Below are positions 4,071 to 37,744 of a stretch of 39,607 nt of DNA, one piece after another. Every line of letters starts with the position of its first letter. Position 1 is the stretch's first letter. The notes beneath the pieces are model-generated. The model saw only the letters and a program-made list of their open reading frames with translations. It was not told the DNA's origin and did no database searches. Both the position numbers and the translations under genes were made by a program. The stretch lies in the sequence record SRR31156797_77. The stretch is one strand, 5' to 3'.

Positions 4071-4143
4071 ATCCGGAAGAAGGACTCGAACCTACAGTCT
4101 CCAGATTATGAATCTGATGAGTTGCCACTTACTCTATTCCGTT
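4071..4143 (-). tRNA. trnM(cau)f: Initiator-type tRNA-Met (CAU)
   Basis: D arm GAGT..ACTC typical of organellar fMet tRNA, anticodon loop TTCATAA, T loop TTCGAGT. Acceptor pairs 1 and 2 mismatched. Confidence 0.8.
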
Positions 4144-4166
4144 TATTTCACCAAATTTAAACTATT

Positions 4167-4580
4167 TTAACGAGATACGATCCTAACCTTAATTGGCAAC
4201 TTAGAGGATCCATAATTTAGTGCCTCAAATGCACAATTTTTCTTTAATCCCATTGTTTCCAAAATAATTTTTCCAGGCTTTACATTTGCAAGCCAATTAC
4301 TTATTGGTCCTTTACCTTTCCCCATTCTGACACCTATTGGTTTCTTGGTAACAGGCATTTCTGGTTTAACTCGAAAAATCAATTTTCCTTGCTTGTTAGT
4401 CACACTTATTATAGCTCTTCGCATTGATTCAATTTGTTTCTGATTAATATATCCATGCTCCAAAGCTAATAGCCCAAATTCTCCAAGGCTTAACTTATCT
4501 GCTGTGACTAACCTTTTTTTAGCAAACCTAATTTTTGTTTTATGATACTTTTTGTATTTTAAATTCGGAATTTTGAACAT
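4167..4580 (-). CDS. rpl16: Ribosomal protein L16
   Basis: KKPIGVRMGKGKG, GSSKLPIK. Confidence 0.97.
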   Translation of the reverse strand: MFKIPNLKYKKYHKTKIRFAKKRLVTADKLSLGEFGLLALEHGYINQKQIESMRRAIISVTNKQGKLIFRVKPEMPVTKKPIGVRMGKGKGPISNWLANVKPGKIILETMGLKKNCAFEALNYGSSKLPIKVRIVSR

Positions 4581-4592
4581 GAACTTCTTTTG

Positions 4593-6143
4593 TTAATTGT
4601 AAAAAACCCAGACTTTAATGCTGCTTATTCCTAGAGAGGTTTTAGCGGTTAAAAAAGAATAATCAATTACAGAGTCAAAGGAAAATCTTGGTGTACTTCC
4701 TATAATCATCCTACGCTTCTGTGATCTCTCCCCAGCAGAAGGGAATCCGTATATATTCAGGTGCCCCTTGCATTCTACTAAGACTCCTTTTAAAGTACCA
4801 TTCCCCAAAAAATTGGATATAAAACCTTCCACATTTTTAAAAATTTTTGGTATAGATTCGTTACGCTTAATCATATGTGTTATGTAGTGAGCAAGCTTAA
4901 AAGCATGTGTTGGGAGAACCAAGGAACCTAAATACGGCTCAGTTCTGCTCGTGTCTTCTATTGCAGACACCCATCTTGGTCTTCTACTAAGCTCTTCCTC
5001 AATAGAGTGTAATATCACGACGTGAACATCACTTTGAGTGTATTTTTCCAAAACGCTTAGAATGCTAGTTCTTCTAATTTTCTTAACATACTTGTTCTTT
5101 ATAGTGAGTTTTGCCGATCTGGTACTAGAGTCTATAGGAAGAATAATACCTAAAGAATTAGTAGAATGTTTGTTATCTAAGGATATGATTTCATTATTAG
5201 AAATTGCATTTGAATCATAATGCAACTCATGAAATAGTAAATCATTCTTGTAAGAGAATATACTTCTAAATTTTTTCTTAAATAAAATGGGCTTAAGAAA
5301 ATACCATGTCATCACTAGATTCATTTCTATCTTCCAGATATCCATTATAAACGCATAATATTCTTTTTCTGAACGAGTGTTTTGAAGATTAACTATGGAA
5401 AATTTACCTATAGACGAAAACTTATTGTTATAGTCCCTAAGAGGTAACACTTTTTCAAGATTATTTGACTTTAAAACAATATAATTGCTAACGAACACCC
5501 TAGCAAAGCCAGATTTGGAATTTAAATTATTTGCGACACCATATTGTAGATAGCAACTCCTCAATAAATCACGGAAAAAAATTTGAAAATTTATAGTATT
5601 ACCCTCTCTTTTTTCAGAAGGCAAACTCTTTGAAAAAGGGTTGGTTAAATCTTGAGTAATGAAATTATCACTTTCCGACAGTTGTCCAGCACTTGTTCTC
5701 CAGTTTTTCACCAAAAAGTCCAAGGAATGTTTTACCGAAACTAATTTAGAAGAGGATCTGAGTGAATTAAAACTAGTTTCATAAAATACACCTTTGCGTC
5801 CCTCAAACAATTTAAATCTAGGTGGTCCACTAACATAAAGCAACACCCAAATAGTAAAGCCGTCTCTTTTAATCACACAATGGTTCACTGTCCTCATAGA
5901 ACTTAGAAAGGAAGACATTTCCTTTTCTCTGAACTTAAATCTGTTTGCAAAGCTTTTTTTCCCCTTGTGCCTTTCAGCCTTTTGAGAGCTTTTCCTACTT
6001 ATCAAATAATTATTTATAATAAATTTTCTTAACGCAAAGTCTTCATATAGAAGGCTTGTATAGTTTTCCTTACTGAACCATTGAGAATTCCAATACCTTG
6101 AATTCCCCATTCTTATTCCAATCGGGTTGGCCCTTCTTGACAT
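4593..6143 (-). CDS. rps3: Ribosomal protein S3 with large internal insertion (516 aa)
   Basis: N-terminal RRANPIGIRMG..WNSQWF; C-terminal GVLVECKG..IDYSFLTAKTSLGISSIKVWV; rps19-rps3-rpl16 synteny. Confidence 0.95.
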   Translation of the reverse strand: MSRRANPIGIRMGNSRYWNSQWFSKENYTSLLYEDFALRKFIINNYLISRKSSQKAERHKGKKSFANRFKFREKEMSSFLSSMRTVNHCVIKRDGFTIWVLLYVSGPPRFKLFEGRKGVFYETSFNSLRSSSKLVSVKHSLDFLVKNWRTSAGQLSESDNFITQDLTNPFSKSLPSEKREGNTINFQIFFRDLLRSCYLQYGVANNLNSKSGFARVFVSNYIVLKSNNLEKVLPLRDYNNKFSSIGKFSIVNLQNTRSEKEYYAFIMDIWKIEMNLVMTWYFLKPILFKKKFRSIFSYKNDLLFHELHYDSNAISNNEIISLDNKHSTNSLGIILPIDSSTRSAKLTIKNKYVKKIRRTSILSVLEKYTQSDVHVVILHSIEEELSRRPRWVSAIEDTSRTEPYLGSLVLPTHAFKLAHYITHMIKRNESIPKIFKNVEGFISNFLGNGTLKGVLVECKGHLNIYGFPSAGERSQKRRMIIGSTPRFSFDSVIDYSFLTAKTSLGISSIKVWVFYN

Positions 6144-6181
6144 TTTATACGGTTATGAATATAATCAAAAAACCTAAACCA

Positions 6182-6499
6182 CTAACGTCTCTTTTGAGAC
6201 GATTTCTTGTTCTTCAAACGCTTTCTTGAAAGGGACCTTGGTCTTCTTGTCATAACTAATTCTCCAAATTTATACCCGATCATTTCACTAATTATACGTT
6301 TGGGGACGAAACGCATACCATTATGTACAAATACAATAGAGCCCACAAACTCTGGTGATATAGCAGAAGCTCTAGATGATGTATTAATTTGTAATGTTTT
6401 AACTGAACCAGCAACATTATTAATTGAACTATTAACAGCAGAGATCTTACTCATTACTTGCTTGTCAAAAAATGGCCCTTTAAATTTAGAGCGACCCAT
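6182..6499 (-). CDS. rps19: Ribosomal protein S19
   Basis: MGRSKFKGPF, VHNG, MIGYKFGELVMTR. Confidence 0.97.
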   Translation of the reverse strand: MGRSKFKGPFFDKQVMSKISAVNSSINNVAGSVKTLQINTSSRASAISPEFVGSIVFVHNGMRFVPKRIISEMIGYKFGELVMTRRPRSLSRKRLKNKKSSQKRR

Positions 6500-6518
6500 T
6501 TACAGTTACTTTTTTAGT

Positions 6519-8191: not shown

Positions 8192-8262
8192 AGACAGGTA
8201 GCATAATGGCAATGCCGGGGATTGCAAATCCCTAAATAGTGGTTCAATTCCACTCCTGGGCT
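8192..8262 (+). tRNA. trnC(gca): tRNA-Cys (GCA)
   Basis: Anticodon arm GGGGA-TTGCAAA-TCCCT, T arm AGTGG-TTCAATT-CCACT, U73. Acceptor pairs 1-3 mismatched. Confidence 0.92.
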
Positions 8263-8305: not shown

Positions 8306-9328
8306 CTATATAATAACCAAAAATATGGAAAAGATAGTAAATATTGTTAGCAATACTTTAGAACAGTATCTAACTAAGTATTGATATTCTCTTTTGCTGG
8401 AGAAATGGTAAGTAGATTTATAATTCATAAAAAGAAAATCAGCATTGATCAATTTGTTAACAGAATAGAGTGAGTATATAAGGGAGAATAGTTTGTGAAA
8501 AAATCCAATATAGCACCGGTTAAATTTAACGTATAAAAAGAAAGCCATAAGGGTAAAAACAAAGCTGAAGGCAGCCATCTCAGGCATTAGGAAAAAATAA
8601 AGTCTTACTTCTTCCTCAAAAATATTAAATTTGTTTGAAATTATAGAATTGACTATGTTAGAATTTGAGAAGGAGTTTAGTGTTTTAACATTAACATTAA
8701 TTATAGGCCAAATTTGGACAAAGAGAAAGAAGCCAATAAGAAAAAACGGAAAAAAAAAGCCTTTATAGTTACAAAGATACATTAAAAAAATGACGAAACC
8801 AAGTTTCCTAAGCCCAAAGTTTCTATTTAAGATAATCATAAAATGCAATAATAAGGAACCACTAGTATAAACTAGATGCAGAAAACAAGCTCTCAAAAAA
8901 AGGCACAACCCTTCACTTTCCAAACCCACAAAACTAACAAATAGTAACTTGTTTTTTTTCATTATGTTATTTAACGTTATAAACGAAACTAAATAATTTA
9001 AAAACAAATTTAATGGAACCAAGATTACTTTATTACTAGTAAATTTTGACACGATCTTTATAACTTTAAAAGATACTTTTTCCACAGTTTTTACCTGAAA
9101 AAACAGAAAAACATACCAAAATATAAATATACTTTTGTCTATTATCGGATTAGCTATATAAAAAGTGTGAAATAAACTAGAAAATGGTATTTTATAGAAT
9201 AAGAACTCCCCTAAGTAATCAAGAGCATCAAGACCTACATTCATACCCATACAAGGAACGACAATATAGTCGCTCCAAAACGAAAATGTCCAAAAGATAC
9301 TCAACGTGATTAGACCTTGTATTATCAA
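8306..9328 (-). CDS. secY: Divergent preprotein translocase subunit SecY (TTG start)
   Basis: Polytopic membrane protein with colinear SecY motifs: YIVVPCM (FIPIPGI), KSIF (ASIF), TSGSLLLHFMIILNRNFGL (VTGTMFLMWLGEQITERGI), LMPEMAAFS (VIPAIFASS), FSLIYSLYSVNKLINADFL (FCFFYTALVFNPRETADNL). Lies upstream of rps13-rps11. Confidence 0.8.
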   Translation of the reverse strand: MIIQGLITLSIFWTFSFWSDYIVVPCMGMNVGLDALDYLGEFLFYKIPFSSLFHTFYIANPIIDKSIFIFWYVFLFFQVKTVEKVSFKVIKIVSKFTSNKVILVPLNLFLNYLVSFITLNNIMKKNKLLFVSFVGLESEGLCLFLRACFLHLVYTSGSLLLHFMIILNRNFGLRKLGFVIFLMYLCNYKGFFFPFFLIGFFLFVQIWPIINVNVKTLNSFSNSNIVNSIISNKFNIFEEEVRLYFFLMPEMAAFSFVFTLMAFFLYVKFNRCYIGFFHKLFSLIYSLYSVNKLINADFLFMNYKSTYHFSSKREYQYLVRYCSKVLLTIFTIFSIFLVII

Positions 9329-10403: not shown

Positions 10404-10478
10404 GGTGAACTGTGGGATTTGAACCCACGTTTTTAGTTTCACAGACTAACGTCATAAACCAACTAGACCAAACTCACC
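10404..10478 (-). tRNA. trnH(gug): tRNA-His (GUG) with encoded G-1
   Basis: Anticodon loop CTGTGAA; G-1:C73 pair encoded. Confidence 0.95.
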
Positions 10479-11375
10479 TTATTGAGCCACTTTGGGTACT
10501 CTCTGAGTAGCAGATAGCTGCAAATACTTTAACAGTACAAATAACTGTTTATATATATTATTGCAACTTTTAAGTTGCGTTGTTAAAACCTTTCTGTAAA
10601 ATGTAATGGCATTATTCACTGAAGTGAAACGAACCAATTTGTTTATATCAGTGGTTCTAAGCATATAAAACCCGACACAAACTATACAAGGAAAACAGTC
10701 TCCCGTAGAGAACTCTCCCTCCAAATTTAATTTACTAATACCCTTTAAGGCACACCATGAGTTATTACTGAATCCTACCAAACTATTAGATGATATACTG
10801 TTGTACAACCAGTTGAGAGTGATTTCTCCACACCCATTTCTTCCGACAAAATTGGCTTTTTTAGACATCCTGTATGGGACAGATCCAACCTTTTTGAAAA
10901 AGTTAGTTGTTCGACGAATTAAATGAAAGGTAGGACCACAAAAATCCACTATTTTAAGACTTTTTACAGTTTTCATAGATTGTGTATGAAAAACAACGAC
11001 AAAGTTAGGAATATTTAAACACAACAAAAATCTTTTCTTTTCTACGTTTGCACGCTCACTATGTTTGTGTATTCTTTTTTTACTATCTTTTTTACCATTA
11101 ATCTTTTTAAAACTATTATAATCCTGATTAAGGGCTTCCAAAAGACCTTTCGTCTCAGAAAGCCACTGTCTTGGAGATCCTATAGTCCTTTCAAGAGCCG
11201 TCTTCTTCAATTGCCACCATATATCACCTGGATATATATCCATGAAAAAACCTAATTTTTTCTCCACGAATTTTTCCTCCTTACTCCATTTAAAGCTACC
11301 AAATCTGTTCCTATTTATTATAACAGATAACTTAACCTGCCTGTTTTTTAATTGATCTGCGACCTTACTTTTCAT
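10479..11375 (-). CDS. rpl10: Probable ribosomal protein L10 with N-terminal extension
   Basis: VVVFHTQSM, LYNSISSNSLVGFS and VGFYMLRTTDINKL loosely match the pattern of protist mitochondrial Rpl10; by-eye only. Confidence 0.5.
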   Translation of the reverse strand: MKSKVADQLKNRQVKLSVIINRNRFGSFKWSKEEKFVEKKLGFFMDIYPGDIWWQLKKTALERTIGSPRQWLSETKGLLEALNQDYNSFKKINGKKDSKKRIHKHSERANVEKKRFLLCLNIPNFVVVFHTQSMKTVKSLKIVDFCGPTFHLIRRTTNFFKKVGSVPYRMSKKANFVGRNGCGEITLNWLYNSISSNSLVGFSNNSWCALKGISKLNLEGEFSTGDCFPCIVCVGFYMLRTTDINKLVRFTSVNNAITFYRKVLTTQLKSCNNIYKQLFVLLKYLQLSATQRVPKVAQ

Positions 11376-11481: not shown

Positions 11482-13359
11482 TTACTGACAGTAAAAAGAA
11501 CATAAAGCCTTACACAACAAGTATTGAGCTCGTAACCAATCACTTAAATTATTTTTTCCTAAAGATGATACAACTAAAATGTTTTGTAAATTTACAAAAC
11601 ATTTTGACTTCAAGTTTCTACCATAATACTGAACTTTTGAATCAGAACTGTTTAAAGCAAGAAAGCGTACTATTTGGAGAAAAAAGAACGTCACAAAAAC
11701 ATCTAAGTCGCACAAAGCCAAATTGATGTTAAACTGATTAAGAAGTCCCGACACAACAGCATACAATTTAACAACTTGTACATCAAGTGGAAGCGGACAG
11801 TGTATATCTTGTTTTAACAACTCAGTAAATAATTGACCTCTTTGCAACAAATATACGGTAGATTGCTCTAAATCTGAGCCAAACTGAACAAAAGCAGCTA
11901 TTTCCCTATACTGTGCTAATTCAAGCTTCAAATTAGATGAAATACGCTTCATAGGAAGCTGCTGAGCTGAAGAACCAACCCTGCTAACGGACAATCCTAT
12001 ATTTATTGCTGGTCTTATTCCCTTATAAAATAATTCAGTTTCCAAAAATATCTGACCATCCGTAATAGATATAACATTTGTTGGAACATATGCTGATATA
12101 TCACCAGCTTGAGTTTCGATTATAGGCAGTGCCGTAAGCGATCCAGAACCAAATTCTTCTCTCATTTTGGCCGCGCGCTCTAATAGTCTAGAGTGTAAGA
12201 AAAACACATCACCTGGAAATGCTTCCCTACCTGGAGACCTACGCAAAAGGAGAGACATTTGTCTATAAGCAACTGCCTGTTTGCTTAGATCATCATATAC
12301 AACTAAACAATGCATTCCTTCATTTCTGTAATACTCACCTATGGTACAGCCTGTAAAAGGAGCCAAAAATTGTAGTGGGGCCGCGTCAGATGCGGTTGCT
12401 GCAACCACTGTAGTGTAACTAAAACTTCCTTTTTTGTTCAAAAAATCAACAACCTTTGAAATTGTTGATCTTTTTTGTCCTATTGCAACATAAACACAGT
12501 AAACTACTTCCCAGGGGTTATTATTATTATATGCAATAATATTTGAAAATGACTGATTTAGTATGGAGTCTAAAGCAATGGATGTCTTACCTATTTGTCT
12601 GTCCCCAATTATCAGTTCACGTTGCCCCCTTCCAATTGGAATCAAACTATCTATTGTTAATATACCAGTGTAGAGAGGCTCATTAATAGATTTTCTTTTT
12701 ATTATTCCAGGAGCTTTACTCTCCAAAAGATAGAATGGTATGTTTTTTTTCATTATGAACTCATACCACTCACTAAAACTGTTTTTTTGATTATCTGGAC
12801 ACCCTAAAGCGTCTACAACTTTACCTAATAAAATTTTGCCTACAGGTATATATATAACCTCTCCTGATCTAGAAACACTCTGCCCCTCTGTAATGTCCTT
12901 ATCATTTCCAAAAACAATAGCATTTACCTTTTCTTTTTCTATATTAAGCGCCATTCCCATAACACCTCCACCAAAATCTATTTTTTCACCAACCTTAACA
13001 CCCAATAACCCAAAAATTTTTGCAACTCCGTCACAAACTGACAGCACTCTCCCAACTCTATCCAGACGGACCGTTGCTCTGTAATTGATTAATCTTTCGT
13101 GAACAAGTAAATAGAATGTAAGAAAATTGTTTTCAAAATCCTGGCTACGACCTAAACCGAACTCTGCCCAGTAAGTATAAAGAAAGCGAAAAAAATTTCC
13201 ATGTGGATACTTGGTTGATACAGTGACCCTTTTTGCATAATTTAATACTCGTTCGGCATCTCCCTTTCTTATGGGAAAGCCATCTATGTTTTTGGGAAAT
13301 AAGTTTTTATCCATTTTCTGGATTACGAAAAGATTGTTTACATTTTTTGACACACTCAA
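11482..13359 (-). CDS. atp1: ATP synthase F1 alpha subunit with N-terminal extension (true start uncertain; may be fused to upstream delta-like ORF)
   Basis: [63 protein letters not shown]. The ORF-track start is a TTG immediately after an in-frame TAA. Confidence 0.98.
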
Positions 13360-13804
13360 TTATAACTTCTTTAGTCAAAACGTTAAACATTATGTCATTG
13401 AGACGATTTATTGAATTAGTATTGTCTACAGTGCTACTATTGACATAATTAATCAGTCCGCTTTTCCAGTCCTTTAGACCGAAAACGATGTACTTTGGAA
13501 GTTCGGAAAAATCACCCTTTTCTGCTATACTTTCGACAAGCTGCGTTCTAGTTTCAAACCACAACTCAAACTCTTCATCAGTAAAGTGGCTACCCATAAT
13601 ATTTCTCATCTCATTTTTTAGCTCCAAACTGTTAATCCTTGAATCTGGATCAAAAGGAATTTTTCCCAATTTTGGTCCCCTGAATATTAATAAAGAGTTC
13701 CTCCTTTTTCTCACCATAAAGTCAATTGTCGTGTATGGAAGCCACATAAATGGGCCATCTGGAAGCTTCTGATTATAATTTTTATTCTTGTTTCTTTTTG
13801 TCAT
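13307..13804 (-). CDS. Putative ATP synthase delta subunit (bacterial AtpH / mitochondrial OSCP homologue), N-terminal part
   Basis: [19 protein letters not shown] resembles Atp[51 protein letters not shown] aligns ungapped to [31 protein letters not shown]; atpH-atpA adjacency. Confidence 0.65.
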
Positions 13805-16539: not shown

Positions 16540-16612
16540 CAGAGGAGACGGGATTTGAACCCATATCGGTGGTTTTGGAGACCACTGCTCTACCAAATTA
16601 AGCTACTCCTTT
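16540..16612 (-). tRNA. trnW(cca): tRNA-Trp (CCA)
   Basis: Anticodon arm GTGGT-CTCCAAA-ACCAC, G73; A2:C71 mismatch. Confidence 0.95.
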
Positions 16613-18613: not shown

Positions 18614-18685
18614 AACTCCTTACGGGATTCGAACCCGTATTGACGCCATGAAAAGGCGTTGTCCTTGCCATTAGACGAAAGGAGG
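18614..18685 (-). tRNA. trnE(uuc): tRNA-Glu (UUC)
   Basis: Anticodon arm ACGCC-TTTTCAT-GGCGT; C1:U72 mismatch. Confidence 0.94.
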
Positions 18686-19134: not shown

Positions 19135-19208
19135 AGTGCTCTATAGGATTTGAACCTATAACAATCGATTTAGAAGACCGATGCTCTATCCAATTGAGCT
19201 AAGAGCAA
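19135..19208 (-). tRNA. trnR(ucu): tRNA-Arg (UCU)
   Basis: Anticodon arm TCGGT-CTTCTAA-ATCGA; U1:C72 mismatch. Confidence 0.94.
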
Positions 19209-19258
19209 ACTCCTGGTGCGGAAAACAACTTTCTGTTGCTTATCAGCAAGTAAAAAAA

Positions 19259-19330
19259 ACGGGTATAGATTAATTGGCAAATTCATTACCTTCCAAGTAA
19301 TAAATATGGGTTCGAATCCCATTACCCGTA
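19259..19330 (+). tRNA. trnG(ucc): tRNA-Gly (UCC)
   Basis: ACGGGTA/TACCCGT acceptor, anticodon loop CTTCCAA. Confidence 0.95.
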
Positions 19331-19342
19331 TGCAACTATAAG

Positions 19343-19429
19343 GCCCGTTTGGTGAAAATTGGTAAACACAGCAGACTTAAAATCTGCGTTCCAAAAATGG
19401 AACTGCTGGTTCAAGTCCAGTAACGGGTA
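19343..19429 (+). tRNA. trnL(uaa): tRNA-Leu (UAA)
   Basis: GCAGA-CTTAAAA-TCTGC, long variable arm. Confidence 0.95.
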
Positions 19430-19449
19430 AAAAGTTAATCCTGTTTACT

Positions 19450-19523
19450 TGAGCTCAAGTAGATTCGAACTACTGACTTCACACTTATCAGGCGTGCACT
19501 CTGTCCAACTGAGTTATGAGCTC
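19450..19523 (-). tRNA. trnI(gau): tRNA-Ile (GAU)
   Basis: GAGCTCA/TGAGCTC acceptor, anticodon loop CTGATAA. Confidence 0.95.
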
Positions 19524-19546
19524 TGTGCTTAATTGTAAACTACTTA

Positions 19547-20566: not shown

Positions 20567-20608
20567 AAAACGTAATTTAGAGTTACTTATTTGACTCACT
20601 GATTAGCT

Positions 20609-21433: not shown

Positions 21434-21446
21434 GTTAGAAGGAAAA

Positions 21447-21519
21447 TGTGCGTATTGGGATTTGAACCCAAAACCAGTGGATTAAAAGTCCAATGCTCTA
21501 CCAATTGAGCTATACGCAA
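21447..21519 (-). tRNA. trnK(uuu): tRNA-Lys (UUU)
   Basis: Anticodon loop CTTTTAA, A73; U1:C72 mismatch. Confidence 0.94.
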
Positions 21520-21529
21520 CTAGTTTGGA

Positions 21530-21602
21530 ACCGAATTAGCTCAATTGGTAGAGCAATTGATTTGTAATCAATTTGTTACTGGTTCAACTCCGGTATTCGG
21601 AT
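21530..21602 (+). tRNA. trnT(ugu): tRNA-Thr (UGU)
   Basis: ATTGA-TTTGTAA-TCAAT; A1:A72 mismatch. Confidence 0.93.
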
Positions 21603-25261: not shown

Positions 25262-26281
25262 ATGACCAAGTTTGTAAAATTTCCTGAAACAAAAACCCCA
25301 AAAATTTGTTATATGACTTCTGAACCGAAAGACATATATTGCTATCTTGACGTTTTGATGGATGAATCTGAAAGGGTTAAGGAAGACAGATTTTGGGTTG
25401 AAAGAGGCACTATTAAAAAAGAAGATCTTCTCACTACCCATTTGTCAAACAATATAGACTGGTTCTTAAGGTTTAGGCATTATTGGTATTCATTTAGTTC
25501 TATTTATTATTTATTGAGCAATTGGGAAAAATTTACTTCTTATAATTCCAAGGCTTGCGGGATGGCGAGAGGCATTGCTTGCACTTCAAGCTATGTTGCA
25601 AACAAACACCTTATGTTAAAAAACAAAAGGAGCAAGTTTATTGCTAGATGGTTAAACAAGAAAAATTGGAAACCTATGTTTAAACAAAATACTCTTGTCA
25701 CCAACTTAGTCTTTAGAGAGGCTTTTCCTACAAGACTATTGTTTTTGGAGCATTTAGATATTTTTGAGGCTTATGGTGATGATTCTAGTAGTGGAATAAA
25801 TGATGAAGTAGGTGCAGAGGAAAATTTGGATCTGCATGAAACATCACTTGATATAGAGGCGGAAGCGTTTGAAGAGGAACCAAATTTTCTCAAATGTTTT
25901 CCCAATAACTTTGAAGTTATAAACTGCGCCTTTAAAGTCGACAATATTTTCGTTGTAAACGTTTGTGATCCGGATCACTATGACGCTTTAGATTATGCAG
26001 ACTTAGATAATGCAATCTACAGAAAGGATCATAAAAAACAGACTTATGAATGGCAAACGAATTTTGCGTATACTGTTTTAAACATGGATGCAGAAAGCAA
26101 AGTATTGGCAAGGTTATTCATTAAAAATATAATAACAAACAAAAAAATTAAAACAAAAAGAAAGCTTACCTTGCTCAAATTATTAAAAGGTACCAAAAGT
26201 AGCAACCCAACGTCCAATTGGGTAAGATCCGATATATTTCGCTTCTTTCTACTAACCAGTTGTGTTTCTATCTTCGGATGA
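25262..26281 (+). CDS. Unidentified protein (orf339); possible expanded ATP synthase epsilon (AtpC) homologue
   Basis: Long ATG ORF with an acidic tract; two segments resemble AtpC (see findings). Confidence 0.65.
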   Translation: MTKFVKFPETKTPKICYMTSEPKDIYCYLDVLMDESERVKEDRFWVERGTIKKEDLLTTHLSNNIDWFLRFRHYWYSFSSIYYLLSNWEKFTSYNSKACGMARGIACTSSYVANKHLMLKNKRSKFIARWLNKKNWKPMFKQNTLVTNLVFREAFPTRLLFLEHLDIFEAYGDDSSSGINDEVGAEENLDLHETSLDIEAEAFEEEPNFLKCFPNNFEVINCAFKVDNIFVVNVCDPDHYDALDYADLDNAIYRKDHKKQTYEWQTNFAYTVLNMDAESKVLARLFIKNIITNKKIKTKRKLTLLKLLKGTKSSNPTSNWVRSDIFRFFLLTSCVSIFG

Positions 26282-26359
26282 AGTAGGATTCGAACCTACG
26301 GTGATTAAGATCACTCCAGTTTTCAAGACTGGCACTTTAAGCCTCTCAGTCATTCATCC
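26275..26359 (-). tRNA. trnS(uga): tRNA-Ser (UGA)
   Basis: GGATGAA/TTCATCC-G, CCAGT-CTTGAAA-ACTGG, long variable arm; 3' end overlaps the orf339 stop. Confidence 0.95.
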
Positions 26360-26375: not shown

Positions 26376-26462
26376 TGGAAAAGGTAGGATTTGAACCTAC
26401 GAAGATTTGTTTAATCAACAGATTTACAGTCTGCCGCTTTAGACCAACTCAGCCACTTTTCC
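26376..26462 (-). tRNA. trnY(gua): tRNA-Tyr (GUA)
   Basis: GGAAAAG/CTTTTCC-A, anticodon loop CTGTAAA, long variable arm. Confidence 0.95.
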
Positions 26463-28193: not shown

Positions 28194-28265
28194 TTTGAGT
28201 AAGAGGATTCGAACCTCTGTATGTCAGTGCCAAAAACTGATGCCTTACCACTTGGCTATACTCAA
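28194..28265 (-). tRNA. trnQ(uug): tRNA-Gln (UUG)
   Basis: TTGAGTA/TACTCAA acceptor, TCAGT-TTTTGGC-ACTGA. Confidence 0.94.
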
Positions 28266-28326: not shown

Positions 28327-28411
28327 GAAGAGATGACCGAGAGGTTTAAGGTGCCAATTTGCTAAATTGGAGTGATCTTAATCACCATGGGTTCGAATCC
28401 CATTCTCTCCG
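28327..28411 (+). tRNA. trnS(gcu): tRNA-Ser (GCU)
   Basis: CCAAT-TTGCTAA-ATTGG, long variable arm, G73; A2:C71 mismatch. Confidence 0.95.
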
Positions 28412-28538: not shown

Positions 28539-30350
28539 ATGATTAGAAAATTGAAGAAAATTTACGTAAAATATTTACGCATCAAGAAGTATGAGGCCTG
28601 GGCAATAAAAAAGTCCCACGTTGAGCTATTAGAGGAAAAATACGTTCCAAATAAAGAAGGAAAGTTAATTGTTTCTCGTTATATTGACGTTAATCAAAAA
28701 TATGAATTTTCCTTTGAAGACTGGAGGGAACTATGCAGAAGCAAAAAAGACAAGCGGGATTGGCTAGCCGGTAGGTTAGCACGTAGGGTTGTAATAAGGA
28801 ATGAACGTGGAAACTTAGAAATGAGACAAGTAAAAGAGGTTGTTGACATGAAGAGAAAAGAATATGAGGAACTTTCTTATCTTTCCAAGTTATTATATAA
28901 TTCAGGTCGCAAGTACAGAAAATTTAGATCTTTACTATTTTTCAGGTTAGGAAAGTATAACCTTGTTTTATGGATACTTGCAAGCTTTTATTGTTTATTG
29001 AAGATTAGAAAAGATGAACTAAGGATTGATCTTTCAAACATTAATAAACAGCAAGTTCTTGTGTTTATAATATTTTATATTACTATAACAATGTCATGGT
29101 ACAAATTCAAAACCTGTAAATTTGGTATACACATGCAATATACAAAAATAGGAATCTCTATATCCAGAATAAAGCAAATTATATTGCTTCCATTTAGAAG
29201 ATTTATTGGTCCGAAACTGAGTCTTTTAAAGGGATTTTACGACGATCCAAATAGATTTACTTTAGAGTTATTAAAGCCTATCTCTGATGGTTCAGAAACA
29301 CTAAAAAAAAGGTTTTTTAAGTACAGTAAATATACAATAATTATTACACACTATACATATTGCCTCTTTTTTTTATTGAACTTATTTACGAAGGTTATCA
29401 GTCGCGCAACTGCCTCTTTAAGTGAGCGTTTAAATCAACTAGAACAGTGGCTAAAAAACTGGGAAAATTTTGTGAAAAATCCATCGTATTTCCTTTTACC
29501 AAAATCACTAAAAATAGATGACTCACAAACTATAAAAGAAATAGGTCTACTTAGATTTGACGAATACATTTATTTAGATCCACAAAGAACAGGAACATTT
29601 TTTGAAAGCTTATTCCTGGATGTCTTTTATTATGGCGAAAAAAGTGCAATACCTTTATCTTCGTTTCAGACGTCAAAAACCCCATTACTAAACATAAAAT
29701 TGAAAAAAGAAGGGCGCTGCCGTGTTGAGGAGATGGAAGACCTTTTATCAGATGTTAATTTTGAGTGTTTTGAGTATGTAAGTTATCTTGTTCAATCCCT
29801 TTTCAAGCCAAGGCTTATTTTTAATATGTCATACTCAACAATAAACTTCATAACCATGAAAATGATTGCCTACAAAAAAAGAAACATTGATTCAAACGTA
29901 CTAAAATATTCACTTGGAAGCTTTAATAAAAAAAGAATGCAAATATTGTTTCGCGTGTACGTCAGGAAGGTCATATATTTCATTACAAATAAAGTATTCA
30001 TTGATGCTTCATGTTTAAATGATAGTAAAGAAGAAGTCATAAGATGGGCAACCGTTACGCTTTTGTATTACACATTCTTCTCGCTGTTTTATGGTGAAGA
30101 GTTTGACAATGTAATAAATAATGAAGTGGATAATTACTTTTTTAATTTCATAATTGAAAACCTCAATGGATTAAAAGAAACGGAAAATGGAAAAGATTGG
30201 CTTATAAACTATATAGAAATTAAAAAATGTTATACTGAAGAGACTAAAGACGTGCTAAGACAAAAAAAGAGATATGATGTTCAGGTCTATGAGGAAGAGC
30301 TGAAATCATATGAAGAAGCACGAAAGGCCAAAAAAAGACATAATAAGTGA
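28539..30350 (+). CDS. Unidentified 603 aa protein (orf603)
   Basis: 1.8 kb stop-free frame in AT-rich DNA; its TGA overlaps the cob GTG start (GTGA). No motif recognised. Confidence 0.75.
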   Translation: MIRKLKKIYVKYLRIKKYEAWAIKKSHVELLEEKYVPNKEGKLIVSRYIDVNQKYEFSFEDWRELCRSKKDKRDWLAGRLARRVVIRNERGNLEMRQVKEVVDMKRKEYEELSYLSKLLYNSGRKYRKFRSLLFFRLGKYNLVLWILASFYCLLKIRKDELRIDLSNINKQQVLVFIIFYITITMSWYKFKTCKFGIHMQYTKIGISISRIKQIILLPFRRFIGPKLSLLKGFYDDPNRFTLELLKPISDGSETLKKRFFKYSKYTIIITHYTYCLFFLLNLFTKVISRATASLSERLNQLEQWLKNWENFVKNPSYFLLPKSLKIDDSQTIKEIGLLRFDEYIYLDPQRTGTFFESLFLDVFYYGEKSAIPLSSFQTSKTPLLNIKLKKEGRCRVEEMEDLLSDVNFECFEYVSYLVQSLFKPRLIFNMSYSTINFITMKMIAYKKRNIDSNVLKYSLGSFNKKRMQILFRVYVRKVIYFITNKVFIDASCLNDSKEEVIRWATVTLLYYTFFSLFYGEEFDNVINNEVDNYFFNFIIENLNGLKETENGKDWLINYIEIKKCYTEETKDVLRQKKRYDVQVYEEELKSYEEARKAKKRHNK

Positions 30351-31588: not shown

Positions 31589-31661
31589 TTGGGAGTAGCG
31601 CAGTTGGTAGCGCATCTGTTTTGGGTACAGAAAGTCACGTGTTCAAGTCACGTCTCCCATA
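31589..31661 (+). tRNA. trnP(ugg): tRNA-Pro (UGG)
   Basis: TCTGT-TTTGGGT-ACAGA; U1:U72 mismatch. Confidence 0.94.
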
Positions 31662-31710: not shown

Positions 31711-31783
31711 TAGGTAATAACAGACTCGAACCGTTAGTCTTCTCCGTGTAAAGGAGATGTTTTGCCAATTAAACTAATTACCA
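31711..31783 (-). tRNA. trnV(uac): tRNA-Val (UAC)
   Basis: TCTCC-TTTACAC-GGAGA, A73; U1:U72 mismatch. Confidence 0.94.
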
Positions 31784-33555: not shown

Positions 33556-33628
33556 CTTCCCAGGCCGGATTTGAACCAACAACTTTGTGATTAACAGTCA
33601 CACGCTCTACCAATTGAGCTACTGAGAA
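33556..33628 (-). tRNA. trnN(guu): tRNA-Asn (GUU)
   Basis: TGTGA-CTGTTAA-TCACA, G73. Confidence 0.95.
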
Positions 33629-33632: not shown

Positions 33633-33706
33633 TGGAGACGGTTGGACTTGAACCAACACTCTTACGTGTGCAAAACGTACATTTTACCTATTTAAATTAC
33701 GCCCCC
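33633..33706 (-). tRNA. trnA(ugc): tRNA-Ala (UGC)
   Basis: Anticodon loop TTTGCAC, G3:U70 identity pair. Confidence 0.95.
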
Positions 33707-33713: not shown

Positions 33714-33786
33714 CAGGAGAGGCGGGGCTTGAACCCGTAACATTTGGTACGACAAACCAACGCTCTGCCATTTGAGCTACTCCCCT
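33714..33786 (-). tRNA. trnD(guc): tRNA-Asp (GUC)
   Basis: TTGGT-TTGTCGT-ACCAA, G73. Confidence 0.94.
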
Positions 33787-33856
33787 TTATTAAATTAGCC
33801 ATAGTAGTTAACAACTAATTCCTGATTAAAAAGGATTTTTAATGTAAAAAACATTT

Positions 33857-36800
33857 ATGAGCAAACGAAGACTAATTGAGAAAAAAAGGATAGTATTCCC
33901 ACAGCTGCTTTCCAATGAAAAAGTTGGTTGGGCACATGTGCGTTTAAAAATATTTAATTGGGATGGTTTAGGAAGATATACTATTCATAACAATGAGGAC
34001 AAAATAGCTATTTTCAACACATATACAATATACAAGTGGATGTCCAACACGCACGGTTTGAAATTTTTAGAGCCTTCTAGAGTTTTTTATGTTTTGGCTA
34101 TACGCTCACAAACAGGGTGGTCTCTAGACTTCTTGGACTCCAGAGAAGAAGTTGGTTGGAAGTCGCAAATTGGGGTCAAAATCTATAACACAAATGATTT
34201 TCCTAAGCACTTTCCAAAGCTTGGACCTAAAGACTTGGCTAAGAAATCTTTCTGGGGATTTCGGTTTTTGCTACACTATATTCCCAAAATTTTTTCCTTT
34301 GCAACAAAGATGATTCAATGTAAAGGTTGGTTGTATCACCATAATCTATTCTTAAGAGATGGGGGTGTGTCAATCAAAGCTTGGAGACTAGAGAGTGAGC
34401 CTCTTTATTACAATGAAATTGGCGGTATAAGAAAAAAAGGTAGAAGTAAAAACAAGGACACTGGTGTTCGTTCATTCAAAGCTTCCATGTATTTGAACCA
34501 ACGTGTCAGAAGGTTTTATGGCTTTATGTCTAGAACTGGGAAAAATTTGGTGCAAACAGTTGATCGCAAAAAAGGTATCTTGTCCAATGGTTCAAATGTT
34601 CTATTTGAGGGTAAAGTCGATATTATATTGTTCCGAATAAAATGGACGCCTAATATATCAGAAGCAAAGCTTATATTCAATAGCAAAATTTTATTCCTCA
34701 ATGACTTTTTAGTAAGAAAAAGTAAAATTTTGCTTAAACGGAGTGACTACTTACATTTTGGCAGTGAACATTCCGTTAATGTCTCACTTGTACCAGAAGT
34801 TGTAAAACGTTGGAAAGGTAATGAGTTATTTAATTCTCCTCAAGTGGTTGAACTTTTTGAGCGTTCCTGGGACTCTTTTTTGTCAACTAAGTTCGTACTC
34901 TTATCAATACCTTTGACCCTCTTAATTAAGACCCTTAAAAGCAAATTCAGCATAGAAGATATAAAAAATAATCTAGCCTCACCCGAGCCAATTGAAAAGG
35001 GACTTGACTTTTATTTTGGGACCCTGTTAGAATTTAATCCTTTCAGTTTGCATTCTTTGAGCCACTGTGATAAATACAGAGTCTTCAGACCTAAAGCAAA
35101 AAATAAAGGTTATACTTTTGTTTTATGGTTTGCTGGTAAAACTTTGAACCTAAAAATGGGTCCAATAATAAACGTATCTGAAAGGCTCAGCAAGATTAGC
35201 AAATTTGAATCACTTCCTGTCCTCTCTGGCCTTAACGGTCCTTCTTTTTTTGGCGAAGTTGAGAACTTGTTGGGTTTGAGTTCACAACACTTTTGTGGTC
35301 TCTTTTGCTCCACCTTAGAACGGATGGAATTTCCTATAAATTTGTCTACAGTTTGGAAACGTTTAACTCAGAAAGATCGAATTAACTTCAAGTATTGGAC
35401 ACTTAATAGGGTTTCTAAATCCGGAAGTAAGGATCTTTTGCTAAATGAGTTTTTGCACGACTTAATAAGTGCAAAAAATCCACACTTAATTAATGCCTCT
35501 GAAAGTATTTTTATTTCAAAATACTTGAACACAAAATTGTGGAGGCTTTATCTTTCAAACGTGGAGCGAGAAGTAGGTTCATCCAGATCAAACATCTTAC
35601 AGGAAAAAGTAGGTATGCTTTCAAGTAATGATTACATTTTCATAAAGGCTGAGAGGAAAATTAGAAAAACTTTCCTCTCAAACTTCGAGATTTCAATCCT
35701 CTTCTCTACCATTAGAGAGTATTACCTAATTATAAACTCTAACAATAAAGAACTGGAATTCTTAAATAATAATTATATAAATACAAGAGACACAGGTATT
35801 AAAAATTGTTTAAAATCTATCTCCAGTCGATTTGTTAATGAAAAAGAGAAACTTATAATTACTGAAATGAGGTACTTATTGGGGAGTATTTTTGTTGCCG
35901 GAAAGAGGATAATAAAATTTGTTCGATATATTGGTTCTAGATCTCTAGATGAAAGTTTAATGACCATTTCCTTAAGAAGGAAAATCAGTAATGTTTTAAT
36001 GGACTATAAAACTCTTCTTTTAAAAATTGTTGGTCACCTTGACTTTATTTTAACTAAATTGAAAAAAAACCAACCGGAAATTCAAATGGTATTGAAAACC
36101 GTACTATTTAAATTGCTAGACAGTAAAAACTTGTCAAAATATTGTAGCTATGATGGTTATAGTGATAAAGAAGTTCCATATTGGTATAAATACAATAAAA
36201 TAGAAAAAGGATTATACACACACAACGATCCCTTTGAGGAAATATTTTCTGGCTTGAAGACTCATTTTAACGAATCTCTACCTTTAAGTCTGAATAAAAA
36301 AACATTCATGCCCGGCGAAATTTGGCTTCCTTATCCAGGCTATGCTGAAGTTGATTATAATAATATGATCTGTACTATGATTGACACACCATATCACCTT
36401 TCATGGGAGCCTAGAAAGTCAAAGTATCTATCGGTACCAAGAGGTGATTCTAGGTGGCTGTATCATTTGGTCTATAATCTATCTGGGAAGGTTATAAGTG
36501 TTCCTAAGGGCATGAAATTCACCTCATTTAATGAAGTGGATCCTAGATTCCTTAAACTCTTGAAAGTGTGGTCTCTGCTCCCTTCAAAAATACAAGAGAC
36601 ATACAAAGAAAAAAGGTTGATGTTCTTAAGTTTAATGTCTGACAGTAATATTAAACATTCTGAGGGCTTAACCGATTATTGGATGTCCGAACTAAGCTTT
36701 AACCCATATATTCATGTTCGGATTGAGGAGGATATACCTCCAAGGATGCTTAACTACTCAAAAATCTCAATTGATTGGCTGAACTTTGATTTCACTAAGG

Positions 36801-36994
36801 ACGTTAAATTTTTGTCTGTTATTACAAACCCTTATGATATGGATCCTTCTCTTGCTGAGGAAATTAAGGAAGACGGCATTCAACATAAGCGTAAGGTGCA
36901 CAATAAATTAAAAGATTATTTTATAGAAAATAATCTATTTACTAGAAAAAGGAGGTATTCTAATGAAGTATGGTACTACAAGAAGAATATCTGA
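33857..36994 (+). CDS. rps4: Giant ribosomal protein S4 (1045 aa)
   Basis: LNQRVRRFYG, FEGKVDIILFRIKWTPNISEAKLI..LND..LLKRSDYL (S4 RNA-binding domain) and distal PGYAEVDY (S4 C-terminal P.YLEVDY). Confidence 0.8.
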   Translation: MSKRRLIEKKRIVFPQLLSNEKVGWAHVRLKIFNWDGLGRYTIHNNEDKIAIFNTYTIYKWMSNTHGLKFLEPSRVFYVLAIRSQTGWSLDFLDSREEVGWKSQIGVKIYNTNDFPKHFPKLGPKDLAKKSFWGFRFLLHYIPKIFSFATKMIQCKGWLYHHNLFLRDGGVSIKAWRLESEPLYYNEIGGIRKKGRSKNKDTGVRSFKASMYLNQRVRRFYGFMSRTGKNLVQTVDRKKGILSNGSNVLFEGKVDIILFRIKWTPNISEAKLIFNSKILFLNDFLVRKSKILLKRSDYLHFGSEHSVNVSLVPEVVKRWKGNELFNSPQVVELFERSWDSFLSTKFVLLSIPLTLLIKTLKSKFSIEDIKNNLASPEPIEKGLDFYFGTLLEFNPFSLHSLSHCDKYRVFRPKAKNKGYTFVLWFAGKTLNLKMGPIINVSERLSKISKFESLPVLSGLNGPSFFGEVENLLGLSSQHFCGLFCSTLERMEFPINLSTVWKRLTQKDRINFKYWTLNRVSKSGSKDLLLNEFLHDLISAKNPHLINASESIFISKYLNTKLWRLYLSNVEREVGSSRSNILQEKVGMLSSNDYIFIKAERKIRKTFLSNFEISILFSTIREYYLIINSNNKELEFLNNNYINTRDTGIKNCLKSISSRFVNEKEKLIITEMRYLLGSIFVAGKRIIKFVRYIGSRSLDESLMTISLRRKISNVLMDYKTLLLKIVGHLDFILTKLKKNQPEIQMVLKTVLFKLLDSKNLSKYCSYDGYSDKEVPYWYKYNKIEKGLYTHNDPFEEIFSGLKTHFNESLPLSLNKKTFMPGEIWLPYPGYAEVDYNNMICTMIDTPYHLSWEPRKSKYLSVPRGDSRWLYHLVYNLSGKVISVPKGMKFTSFNEVDPRFLKLLKVWSLLPSKIQETYKEKRLMFLSLMSDSNIKHSEGLTDYWMSELSFNPYIHVRIEEDIPPRMLNYSKISIDWLNFDFTKDVKFLSVITNPYDMDPSLAEEIKEDGIQHKRKVHNKLKDYFIENNLFTRKRRYSNEVWYYKKNI

Positions 36995-37005
36995 TGTGTG
37001 ATATA

Positions 37006-37467
37006 TTAAGCTTTGATTTTATAAGTATAGAAAGACCAAGACCATCTGTTATGCTCTTTCTTGACTCTTGAAAATCGCCTTGCTTTATCTCTTACAAAAA
37101 AAAAATTATTTCTTCCTCTTTTACTAACGAACTTATTGAATGTGACCGCAGAACAAAGCCTTGGGGATTTAAGAGGAAACAAGTGTTCAACTATGCTCTC
37201 GTGAAAGACGTTTCTTATGAGTACAGCACCTTCCGAGTGCTTTACTAACTTACCAAAAAAAAACATTCTTTTTCTAGAAAATTTCTCTCCTACTATGTGA
37301 AGTATGTTGGTAAGAGGGCCTGCACTTGTATTAGGTGTTAATTTAATGAAATAACTACTAGAAAGCGTATTTTGGGAAAAAAATTCTTGTCTTTTAAAAT
37401 TTGATAGGATATTATTATTAATGAAAGGTTGCATGTACTTTATTACAATAAACGTCAAAGAGAGCAA
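37006..37467 (-). CDS. rpl19: Ribosomal protein L19 (TTG start, or ATG at 37434)
   Basis: FFGKLV, LIRNVFHESIVEHLFPLKSPRL, RNNFFFVRDK. Confidence 0.85.
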   Translation of the reverse strand: MLSLTFIVIKYMQPFINNNILSNFKRQEFFSQNTLSSSYFIKLTPNTSAGPLTNILHIVGEKFSRKRMFFFGKLVKHSEGAVLIRNVFHESIVEHLFPLKSPRLCSAVTFNKFVSKRGRNNFFFVRDKARRFSRVKKEHNRWSWSFYTYKIKA

Positions 37468-37526
37468 GTCTTAACTTTGTATTTGAACTCTAAATATAAA
37501 CTTTAAGACTGTGGTTAATCCTTTTA

Positions 37527-37598
37527 GGCGAAGTAGTTTAATAGGTAAAACAGCGGAATCATAACCCGCCCACAGAGGTTCAATTCCTTTCTTCGCCA
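37527..37598 (+). tRNA. trnM(cau)e: Elongator tRNA-Met (CAU)
   Basis: GGCGAAG/CTTCGCC-A, GCGGA-ATCATAA-CCCGC; resembles alphaproteobacterial elongator Met tRNA. Confidence 0.85.
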
Positions 37599-37659
37599 TA
37601 GAAATCTATTTTTTTACACTAGACCCAAAGTTAAATCTCTTTGGTCTGTTACGACTTAT

Positions 37660-37744
37660 TGTTGAAGATGGGACTCGAACCCATATTTTTTGTAAAAAAG
37701 CTGGATCCTAAGTCCAGTGCGTTTGCCAGTTCCGCCACTTCAAT
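37660..37744 (-). tRNA. trnL(uag): tRNA-Leu (UAG)
   Basis: CTGGA-CTTAGGA-TCCAG, long variable arm; A1:C72 mismatch. Confidence 0.94.

Follow-up and report, generated by a model that had tools for sequence, protein, structure and literature searches.

Mitochondrial 5' tRNA editing depends on polymerases that run in reverse, in the 3'-to-5' direction, and its known or predicted cases are scattered over Amoebozoa, chytrid fungi and Heterolobosea. In Acanthamoeba castellanii, 12 of 15 mitochondrial tRNAs are affected, according to the account of Lonergan and Gray (1993) given in PMC4284800, and in Dictyostelium discoideum 10 of 18 (PMC4284800). Predicted cases in the Heterolobosea include Acrasis, with 8 of 11 tRNAs, and Naegleria, with 8 of 20. 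The genomic criteria used in the literature to recognise the process are mismatches in acceptor pairs 1-3 only, many affected tRNAs, and mismatches of all types (PMC4284800).

Here, we analysed a DNA stretch of 39,607 nucleotides (sequence record SRR31156797_77; hereafter the window), in which every one of these features was found. The fraction of affected tRNAs, 11/24, lies within the range spanned by the four organisms above, and the window is probably a further case of the known process. We propose, with a probability of about 0.68, that the encoded 5' ends are rebuilt on the 3' strand by this type of editing, the RNA change, the repaired side and the enzyme family being what we infer from the genes.

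Results

The window derives from a protist mitochondrial genome that is rich in genes. Its genes lie on both strands, its main reading frames need no TGA, and its gene set, which includes secA, cox11 and atp3, is unusually bacteria-like. The best 120 cox1 hits listed show ~56-70% identity, none among them exceeding ~70%. When metagenomes were scanned with the SecA-like protein, 233 pattern matches were obtained, none of which was confirmed by tblastn. The published mitochondrial DNA of Mantamonas sphyraenae has a G+C content of 26.55% and is without cox11, whereas the window has 32.8% G+C and encodes cox11; the two are thus not the same genome. In the literature searched, we found no report of a mitochondrial DNA that combines such a gene set with tRNA editing.

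ARAGORN identified 23 tRNA genes, and Rfam the same 23 plus a tRNA-Cys at 8195-8258 that aligned with model positions 4-67 only, giving a total of 24 (Table 1). A permissive Rfam scan of the window found no additional tRNA; besides the tRNAs, it returned only antisense tRNA echoes matched by plastid UTR models, below the thresholds of those models. Each anticodon occurs once in the window, CAU excepted. Only one tRNA-Arg gene (UCU) is present, and no tRNA-Phe gene was found in the window by ARAGORN or by the permissive scan. Thus, tRNA-Phe and the other arginine tRNAs must be supplied by import or by a missing part of the genome. U8 is present in all 24 tRNAs. The tRNA-Met(CAU) with a mismatched acceptor stem is likely the initiator (fMet), judging from its A11:U24 pair. 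In tRNA-His, the G at position -1 (10478) is encoded opposite C73, and its post-transcriptional addition is therefore not needed.

Table 1. tRNA genes of the window, in order of position, with the 5'-side changes predicted for the affected ones.
tRNA	Coordinates	Strand	Encoded acceptor stem	Detection or comparison	Predicted change
Met(CAU)_a	1979-2050	-	fully paired control		
Met(CAU), likely initiator	4071-4143	-	A1:A72, A2:G71; N73 = U	ARAGORN; Rfam model positions 3-68 only	A2 to C; also A1 to U if pair 1 is templated
Cys(GCA)	8192-8262	+	A1:C72, G2:G71, A3:G70; U73	Rfam 49.5 bits, positions 4-67; missed by ARAGORN	A1 to G, G2 to C, A3 to C
His(GUG)	10404-10478	-	fully paired control	ARAGORN, Rfam register	
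Trp(CCA)	16540-16612	-	A2:C71, 1:72 paired; G73	C71 and G73 as in E. coli trpT	A2 to G
Glu(UUC)	18614-18685	-	C1:U72	ARAGORN, Rfam register	C1 to A
Arg(UCU)	19135-19208	-	U1:C72	C72 as in E. coli argU	U1 to G
Gly	19259-19330	+	fully paired control		
Leu-UAA	19343-19429	+	fully paired control (G1:U72)		
Ile	19450-19523	-	fully paired control		
Lys(UUU)	21447-21519	-	U1:C72	C72 as in E. coli lysT	U1 to G
Thr(UGU)	21530-21602	+	A1:A72	ARAGORN, Rfam register	A1 to U
Ser-UGA	26275-26359	-	fully paired control		
Tyr	26376-26462	-	fully paired control		
Gln	28194-28265	-	fully paired control		
Ser(GCU)	28327-28411	+	A2:C71, 1:72 paired	C71 as in E. coli serV	A2 to G
Pro(UGG)	31589-31661	+	U1:U72	ARAGORN, Rfam register	U1 to A
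Val(UAC)	31711-31783	-	U1:U72	ARAGORN, Rfam register	U1 to A
Leu-CAA	33445-33525	-	fully paired control		
Asn	33556-33628	-	fully paired control		
Ala	33633-33706	-	fully paired control (encodes G3:U70)		
Asp	33714-33786	-	fully paired control		
Met_b	37527-37598	+	fully paired control		
Leu(UAG)	37660-37744	-	A1:C72; A73	C72 as in E. coli leuW	A1 to G

The register of each acceptor stem was set by the ends of the Rfam hits together with T-arm geometry; on this scale, position 73 of the initiator lies at 4071 of the window and position 1 of tRNA-Leu(UAG) at 37744. A preliminary description of the window had listed non-pairing acceptor positions in 11 of the 24 tRNAs, and every one of them is present in the Rfam register. 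There are 14 in all, nine at pair 1:72, four at 2:71 and one at 3:70. As had also been described, pairs 4-7 are free of mismatches (0 of 96 cells). Watson-Crick pairs, G:U pairs and mismatches number 14/1/9 at 1:72, 19/1/4 at 2:71, 22/1/1 at 3:70, 22/2/0 at each of 4:69, 5:68 and 6:67, and 24/0/0 at 7:66. If the 14 mismatches were spread at random over the 168 cells, all would fall within the 72 of pairs 1-3 with a probability of 3.2e-6 (hypergeometric).

The other stems served as an internal control. Anticodon stems and T stems are mismatched in 2 of 120 cells each (tRNA-Lys(UUU), for example, has U27:C43 in its anticodon stem), and the D stems in 9 of 96, every one at 13:22, a position that is commonly non-Watson-Crick. 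With 13:22 set aside, only 4 of 408 other helical cells are mismatched. The Rfam scores of the affected tRNAs are 46-67 bits, the gathering score being 29. No affected gene overlaps another on the same strand, and the 20 bases that precede each of the 24 genes show no shared motif that would account for the odd 5' letters.

Given that seven tRNAs are mismatched at 1:72 only and that 4 of the 14 cells are A:C, perhaps no nucleotide is replaced at all: terminal mismatches would be tolerated, A:C cells deaminated (C to U, A to I), and tRNA-Cys, perhaps also the initiator, would be decaying and compensated by import. In some systems, U:U and other mismatches at 1:72 can stay unedited, as exemplified by the U x U of Seculamonas tRNA-His (PMC3590771). 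Both C-to-U editing and the import of tRNAs are found in mitochondria of other protists (Acrasis), and the tRNA-Phe and tRNA-Arg genes not in the window call for import or a missing genome part in any case.

We nevertheless consider this explanation unlikely. In tRNA-Trp and tRNA-Ser(GCU) the mismatch at 2:71 is internal to a paired 1:72, and tRNA-Cys has three consecutive mismatches, which goes beyond mere fraying of the stem end. Deamination would mend just 4 of 14 cells and 3 of 11 tRNAs (Trp, Ser-GCU and Leu-UAG), and is powerless for G2:G71 and A3:G70 of tRNA-Cys and A2:G71 of the initiator. Since 10 of the 14 repairs on the 5' side need transversions, deamination is no explanation for them; the case for replacement of nucleotides in Acanthamoeba has likewise been made from transversions (PMC4284800). 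Moreover, although tRNA-Cys has just four acceptor pairs encoded, its D, anticodon and T stems are perfect and it keeps the anticodon GCA and the determinant U73, which is not pseudogene-like. Finally, pair 1 is mismatched in 9 of 24 tRNAs, compared with ~1% of cells elsewhere, the departures appear to lie on the 5' side, and such free 5' letters need a reason.

The two strands of the mismatched cells do not behave alike. Their 5' letters are G or C in 2 of 14 cells, compared with 85 of 154 paired cells (Fisher 0.004), whereas their 3' letters do not differ from those of paired cells (9 of 14 versus 84 of 154; Fisher 0.58). Similarly, G1 is found in none of the nine tRNAs mismatched at pair 1 but in 9 of the 15 paired there (Fisher 0.007), while C72 occurs in 4 of 9 and 8 of 15, respectively (Fisher 1.0). 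We also compared 18 of the 24 tRNAs, including all 11 affected ones, with their E. coli K-12 counterparts of identical anticodon. At mismatched cells, agreement with E. coli is seen for the 5' letter in 1 of 14 cases and for the 3' letter in 8 of 14 (Fisher 0.013); paired cells of pairs 1-3 give a baseline of 26 of 40 on either strand; these strand statistics cover 14 cells and one distant outgroup, a gammaproteobacterium. The 3' letter departs from E. coli in the remaining 6 of 14 cells, namely pair 1 of Glu, Thr, Pro and Val and pair 2:71 of the initiator and Cys, and these cells therefore lend no support to a direction of repair.

The mismatch pattern and the strand asymmetry are thus directly seen in the window. 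The composition and E. coli comparisons suggest that it is the 5' strand that lacks constraint, the 3' letters behaving as in a normal stem. The identity elements agree with this reading: tRNA-Ser(GCU) shares C71, C72 and G73 with the other serine tRNA of the window, tRNA-Ser(UGA), and repair on the 5' side would yield A1-U72 and G2-C71 with G73 in tRNA-Trp, and G2-C71 with C72 and G73 in tRNA-Ser, which are the bacterial determinants listed for these two tRNAs in Table 1 of PMC9976931.

The asymmetry is not uniform, as Glu, Thr, Pro and Val carry a U72 or A72 that resembles neither strand of the bacterial tRNA. Both ends might be edited in one organelle, with Cys, Trp, Ser-GCU, Arg, Lys and Leu-UAG repaired at the 5' end and these four at the 3' end or left unpaired. 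We regard this as improbable; 5' and 3' editing together in one organism had not been found as of a 2014 review (PMC4284800).

Alternatively, nucleotides 70-72 could be removed and resynthesised on the 5' strand in all affected tRNAs, as proposed for the centipede Lithobius forficatus, where all four nucleotides are used and stems are perfectly restored (PMC4284800). Such templated 3' editing would mend any type of mismatch (PMC4284800). The preliminary description had kept 3' editing open for Glu, Thr and Pro, a caveat that holds and extends to Val and to pair 1 of the initiator, where the sequence gives no direction. However, constrained 3' letters (G/C in 9 of 14 cells, agreement with E. 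coli close to the baseline) and free 5' letters are the opposite of the outcome expected if the 3' strand were replaced. With 3' repair, G1 would also be present in 0 of 9 tRNAs mismatched at pair 1, versus 9 of 15 others. Furthermore, in Lithobius 21 of 22 tRNAs are affected, up to five pairs deep and in overlapping genes, whereas the window has no mismatch beyond pair 3, no same-strand overlap and a 3' strand that looks conserved. Templated 3' editing is thus decidedly improbable.

A very improbable variant is the editing of the Seculamonas type, in which a CCA-adding-like activity places C or A at positions 71-73. It has been described from a protist whose mitochondrial DNA is gene-rich and bacteria-like, and its mismatches likewise lie in the first three pairs (PMC3590771, PMC4284800). 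An A at position 72 could mend the U1 tRNAs Arg, Lys, Pro and Val. However, these four are the only wholly mendable ones among the 11, since a 5' U or G, which would pair with an added A or C, is present in just 5 of 14 cells; eight cells with a 5' A would require U, and in Cys position 70, which lies outside 71-73, would have to change. Seculamonas-type editing, with its C/A bias, concerns just two tRNAs (PMC4284800), compared with 11 in the window.

An artefact of wrong registers or sequencing errors is hardly credible: ARAGORN draws an eighth pair in some stems and a naive search for the register put Ser-UGA, Val and Asp in the wrong place, but the Rfam covariance model registers agree with T-arm geometry and with U8 in every tRNA, and errors would not be confined to pairs 1-3 or to one strand.

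Discussion

The preliminary reading of the window as a pattern of 3'-templated 5' editing is supported, indirectly, by the genomic features and by the composition and E. coli comparisons, which favour drift of the 5' strand. In the 5' repair that we propose, transcription and end processing would be followed by a nuclease that strips the 5' end of one to three nucleotides, and the gap would then be filled 3' to 5', templated by nucleotides 72, 71 and 70. To our knowledge, the identity of the 5'-stripping nuclease is known in no system. The refilling enzyme would be a Thg1-like protein encoded in the nucleus and targeted to mitochondria. Among 30 ORFs of the window scanned against Pfam, no Thg1 relative was found, in line with a nuclear location of the gene. 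CCA is absent from all 24 genes and would therefore be added last.

It should be noted that a fully templated repair of the initiator would leave its pair 1:72 paired, contrary to bacterial formylation, which relies on an unpaired 1:72 (PMC9976931).

If our proposal is correct, the window adds a predicted data point from a lineage without close database relatives and with a bacteria-like gene set. It touches on the question of whether this repair system has many origins or reflects an old mitochondrial function of Thg1-like proteins; on a broad reading that we regard as improbable, 5' repair in an orphan lineage, beside Amoebozoa, fungi and Heterolobosea, would speak for an ancestral mitochondrial role. 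There is also a consequence for annotation, given that ARAGORN missed tRNA-Cys: tRNA finders should be expected to miss or truncate such genes.

Among the described systems, that of the chytrid fungi (Spizellomyces, Monoblepharella and others) is also a 5' editing system, in a lineage different from that of the window. In the account of Acanthamoeba castellanii cited above, as in the window, the mismatches occur only at 1:72, 2:71 and 3:70, in many tRNAs, and are of all kinds, including those that require transversions. Use of the 3' strand as template is a further likeness, predicted on the window's side. According to the same account, sequenced tRNAs demonstrate the editing in Acanthamoeba, and truncated substrates are repaired in vitro by two Thg1-like proteins, whereas for the window both the edited RNA and the enzyme are predictions from the genes. 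The genomes also differ in kind, in that the window has genes on both strands, no need for TGA, and secA, cox11 and atp3.

The genomic signature of Dictyostelium discoideum (enzymes DdiTLP3 and DdiTLP4) and Polysphondylium is the same as that of the window. In Dictyostelium, the G3:U70 of tRNA-Ala is left unedited, and the tRNA-Ala of the window likewise encodes G3:U70. A G:U at 1:72 is sometimes edited in Dictyostelium; the window's G1:U72 in tRNA-Leu-UAA is the same as in E. coli leuZ and may therefore go unedited. Finally, the prediction made for the Heterolobosea uses the same genomic criterion as ours and shares its argument, namely that tRNAs so well conserved are not pseudogenes.

Acceptor-stem mismatches cluster in the first three pairs

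ARAGORN found 23 tRNA genes in the window and Rfam found the same genes plus tRNA-Cys, giving the 24 counted in the preliminary description; a permissive Rfam scan of the window revealed no further tRNA. Positions 1 and 73 were fixed by the Rfam match ends, T-arm geometry and U8. In the final register table, all the mismatches previously claimed in 11 of the 24 tRNAs were reproduced: fMet (A1:A72, A2:G71), Cys (A1:C72, G2:G71, A3:G70), Trp (A2:C71), Glu (C1:U72), Arg-UCU (U1:C72), Lys (U1:C72), Thr (A1:A72), Ser-GCU (A2:C71), Pro (U1:U72), Val (U1:U72) and Leu-UAG (A1:C72). These 14 mismatches fall at pairs 1:72 (nine), 2:71 (four) and 3:70 (one). Pairs 4–7, described earlier as mismatch-free, indeed have none in 96 cells (a cell being one helical base-pair position in one tRNA), and the hypergeometric probability that 14/14 mismatches lie within pairs 1–3 is 3.2e-6. 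Outside the acceptor, the anticodon and T stems each show 2 mismatches in 120 cells, and the nine D-stem mismatches are all at 13:22, a position that is commonly non-Watson-Crick. With 13:22 set aside, the stem counts correspond to a mismatch rate of 14/72 in pairs 1–3 versus 4/408 elsewhere. The acceptor mismatch pattern is real and far beyond chance.

CCA after position 73 is encoded by none of the 24 tRNA genes, the affected tRNAs are free of overlap with same-strand genes, and no common motif is visible in the 20 bases upstream of the 24 genes.

Strand asymmetry of the mismatched pairs

Repair of mismatches in the first three pairs is known on either side of the stem. Acanthamoeba, dictyostelids, Physarum and chytrids mend the 5' end (PMC4284800), and the jakobid Seculamonas mends the 3' end, as described in passages of PMC3590771 and PMC4284800. 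A strand that is replaced after transcription drifts freely in the gene, whereas the template strand must keep its function; 5' editing should leave the 5' strand free, and 3' editing the 3' strand. Among the 14 mismatches the base on the 5' side is A in eight, U in four, G in one and C in one, so that G/C accounts for 2/14 versus 85/154 at paired cells (Fisher 0.004), the corresponding values for the 3' letters being 9/14 and 84/154 (0.58). None of the 9 tRNAs mismatched at the first pair has G1, against 9 of the 15 in which that pair is intact (0.007), whereas C72 occurs at similar rates in the two groups, 4/9 and 8/15, respectively (1.0).

As an outgroup we used E. coli K-12 tRNA genes with the same anticodon. 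This comparison took in each of the 11 affected tRNAs and seven others (18 of 24), and left out Met_a (a second tRNA-Met(CAU) gene with a fully paired acceptor stem), Ile, Ser-UGA, Leu-CAA, Asn and Ala. The 5' letter is the same as in E. coli at one of the 14 mismatched cells (Cys G2), and the 3' letter at eight (Cys C72, Cys G70, Trp C71, Ser C71, Arg C72, Lys C72, Leu-UAG C72 and fMet A72). Given that 26 of the 40 paired cells of pairs 1–3 in the same tRNAs agree with E. coli on each strand, conservation at the mismatches reaches about the normal level on the 3' strand but not on the 5' strand (Fisher 0.013).

By composition, first pair and outgroup alike, it is the 5' strand that looks unconstrained, which favours the interpretation initially put forward. 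Overall, 5' editing, as predicted from gene sequence, is the best-supported reading, with a probability of roughly two in three. We propose that the 5' nucleotides of the affected mitochondrial tRNAs would be replaced after transcription, with the 3' strand as template, through refilling of 5'-truncated tRNAs. A Thg1-like protein is the candidate enzyme by analogy, since refilling of 5'-truncated mitochondrial tRNAs has to date been demonstrated for this family alone (in Dictyostelium and Acanthamoeba; PMC4284800).

In our judgement, Cys, Trp, Ser-GCU, Arg, Lys and Leu-UAG make a stronger case for 5' editing than the other affected tRNAs. At the mismatched cells of Glu, Thr, Pro and Val neither strand resembles the E. 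coli tRNA; these tRNAs, as well as pair 1 of fMet, may be 5'-edited, 3'-edited or left unpaired. The earlier caveat allowing for 3' editing of Glu, Thr and Pro was therefore well placed.

Identity elements, initiator and tRNA-His

Table 1 of PMC9976931 gives bacterial determinants that include G73, A1-U72 and G2-C71 for Trp, G73, C72, G2-C71 and R4-Y69 for Ser, and U73 for Cys. Changing A2 to G in Trp and Ser-GCU would restore exactly the listed determinant pairs, and the unaffected tRNA-Ser(UGA) of the window has C71, C72 and G73, as in Ser-GCU. For Cys, 5' repair would yield C3-G70 and C2-G71 with U73 kept, and 3' repair G2-C71; identity rules favour neither side.

Fully templated repair would make the 1:72 pair of fMet paired. 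The fMet label looks right, given that this tRNA carries A11:U24, which we take to be a bacterial initiator mark, and that Met_b, the third tRNA-Met(CAU), has an elongator-type A at position 32. A32 is described for elongator tRNA-Met of many protists in a passage of the jakobid paper (PMC3590771). The anticodon-stem mismatches of Met_b and Lys could not be repaired by 5' editing. Since tRNA-His has an encoded G-1, no added G is needed; its position opposite C73 is the bacterial arrangement, noted in jakobids too in part of PMC3590771.

Alternative explanations

For the seven tRNAs mismatched at 1:72 alone, tolerance of the terminal mismatch is plausible, and a passage of PMC3590771 describes a retained U x U in Seculamonas tRNA-His. 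Such tolerance leaves unexplained, however, Trp and Ser-GCU with their internal 2:71 mismatches, fMet with A2:G71, and Cys with just four acceptor pairs encoded. The Cys gene may instead be decaying, a cytosolic tRNA being imported in its place, but the gene keeps perfect D, anticodon and T stems as well as U73 and the GCA anticodon. Templated 3' synthesis of the Lithobius type could mend every mismatch, but the asymmetry between the strands speaks against it, and the window lacks the gene overlaps and deep mismatches of Lithobius (PMC4284800). The C/A-biased 3' repair at positions 71–73 known from Seculamonas can explain the pattern only in part, as it pairs only with 5' U or G (5/14 cells) and mends 4/11 tRNAs whole (Arg, Lys, Pro, Val). 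Deamination can mend only A:C cells (4 of 14), and 10 of the 14 substitutions that would mend the 5' strand are transversions.

Gene content of the window

Pfam scans of 30 reading frames and protein search identified cox1, cox3, cox11, atp1, atp3 (gamma subunit), atp6 and sdh2, a weakly matching sdh3/4-like frame, and 14 ribosomal protein genes (rpl6, rpl11, rpl14, rpl16, rpl19, rps2, rps3, rps7, rps10, rps11, rps12, rps13, rps14 and rps19); cob was recognised by eye from its translation. This gene content, together with main frames that need no TGA reassignment, indicates that the window comes from a gene-rich mitochondrial genome of a protist. The best 120 cox1 matches listed show only ~56–70% identity, so a close relative is absent from that collection. 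Along the minus strand the gene order would be rns, gap, rnl.

No nad (complex I), cox2, atp8 or atp9 gene was recognised in the 30 Pfam-scanned frames and the cox1 and cob frames of this window cut in rns and rnl, yet 24 tRNAs, 14 ribosomal protein genes, sdh2, cox11, atp1 and atp3 are encoded. A SecA homologue is also present, its top match among solved SecA structures having E = 1.3e-29, and none of the window's frames was recognised as secY, secE or secG. To our knowledge, secA is very rarely encoded in mitochondria; a 2025/26 paper reportedly describes one in a relative of Meteora.

At E up to 0.01, Pfam matched none of eight long open frames of 165 to 1045 residues. Several known genes are strongly extended (cox3, 528 residues; rps3, 516; the rps10-domain frame, 610; cox1, 554), the COX3 domain forming two separate stretches. 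The sign of the G/C skew flips near 20–22 kb (about 19200–21600), where the coding strand goes from mostly minus to mostly plus; this switch may be a divergent transcription or replication point.

Table. Positions of features in the window
Feature	Position	Strand	Remarks
Small-subunit rRNA gene, partial	1-886	minus	Rfam model positions 1-811; window begins inside gene
Large-subunit rRNA gene, partial	39323-39607	minus	Rfam model positions 2621-2925; window ends inside gene
tRNA-Cys, Rfam match	8195-8258		aligned over model positions 4-67 only
tRNA-His G-1	10478	minus	genome-encoded, opposite C73
tRNA-Lys	21447-21519	minus	anticodon-stem mismatch U27:C43
tRNA-Met_b, elongator-like	37527-37598	plus	anticodon-stem mismatch A31:C39
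SecA homologue	21649-23976	plus	775 residues; Pfam SecA_DEAD 3.6e-28, preprotein cross-linking domain 1.8e-09
Frame without Pfam match	33857-36994	plus	
Frame without Pfam match	28539-30350	plus	
Frame without Pfam match	25262-26281	plus	
Frame without Pfam match	20618-21433	plus	
Frame without Pfam match	8306-9250	minus	
Frame without Pfam match	10479-11375	minus	
Frame without Pfam match	1078-1770	minus	
Frame without Pfam match	13307-13804	minus	

Comparison with known systems

In its gene set the window is reminiscent of gene-rich mtDNAs from orphan protists: passages of two preprints report atp3 and cox11 in Meteora (10.1101/2023.08.13.553137) and a mitochondrial secA in Mantamonas sphyraenae (10.1101/2024.01.30.577968). 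The window is not the mtDNA of Mantamonas sphyraenae, whose genome is given there as 26.55% G+C and without cox11, whereas the window has 32.8% G+C and cox11. The passages matching our term searches in the two preprints make no mention of tRNA acceptor-stem editing, nor did our literature search turn up a report of such editing in a comparable genome.

Predicting 5' tRNA editing from gene sequences is standard practice, and the genomic signature of the window matches the features by which mitochondrial 5' tRNA editing is defined. The share of affected tRNAs, 11/24, compares with 12/15 in Acanthamoeba and 10/18 in Dictyostelium (PMC4284800), and with sequence-only predictions of 8/11 in Acrasis and 8/20 in Naegleria quoted in part of PMC4202320. 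Since signature and fraction match these known or predicted cases, the kind of system would be one already known, and it is the lineage that may be new.
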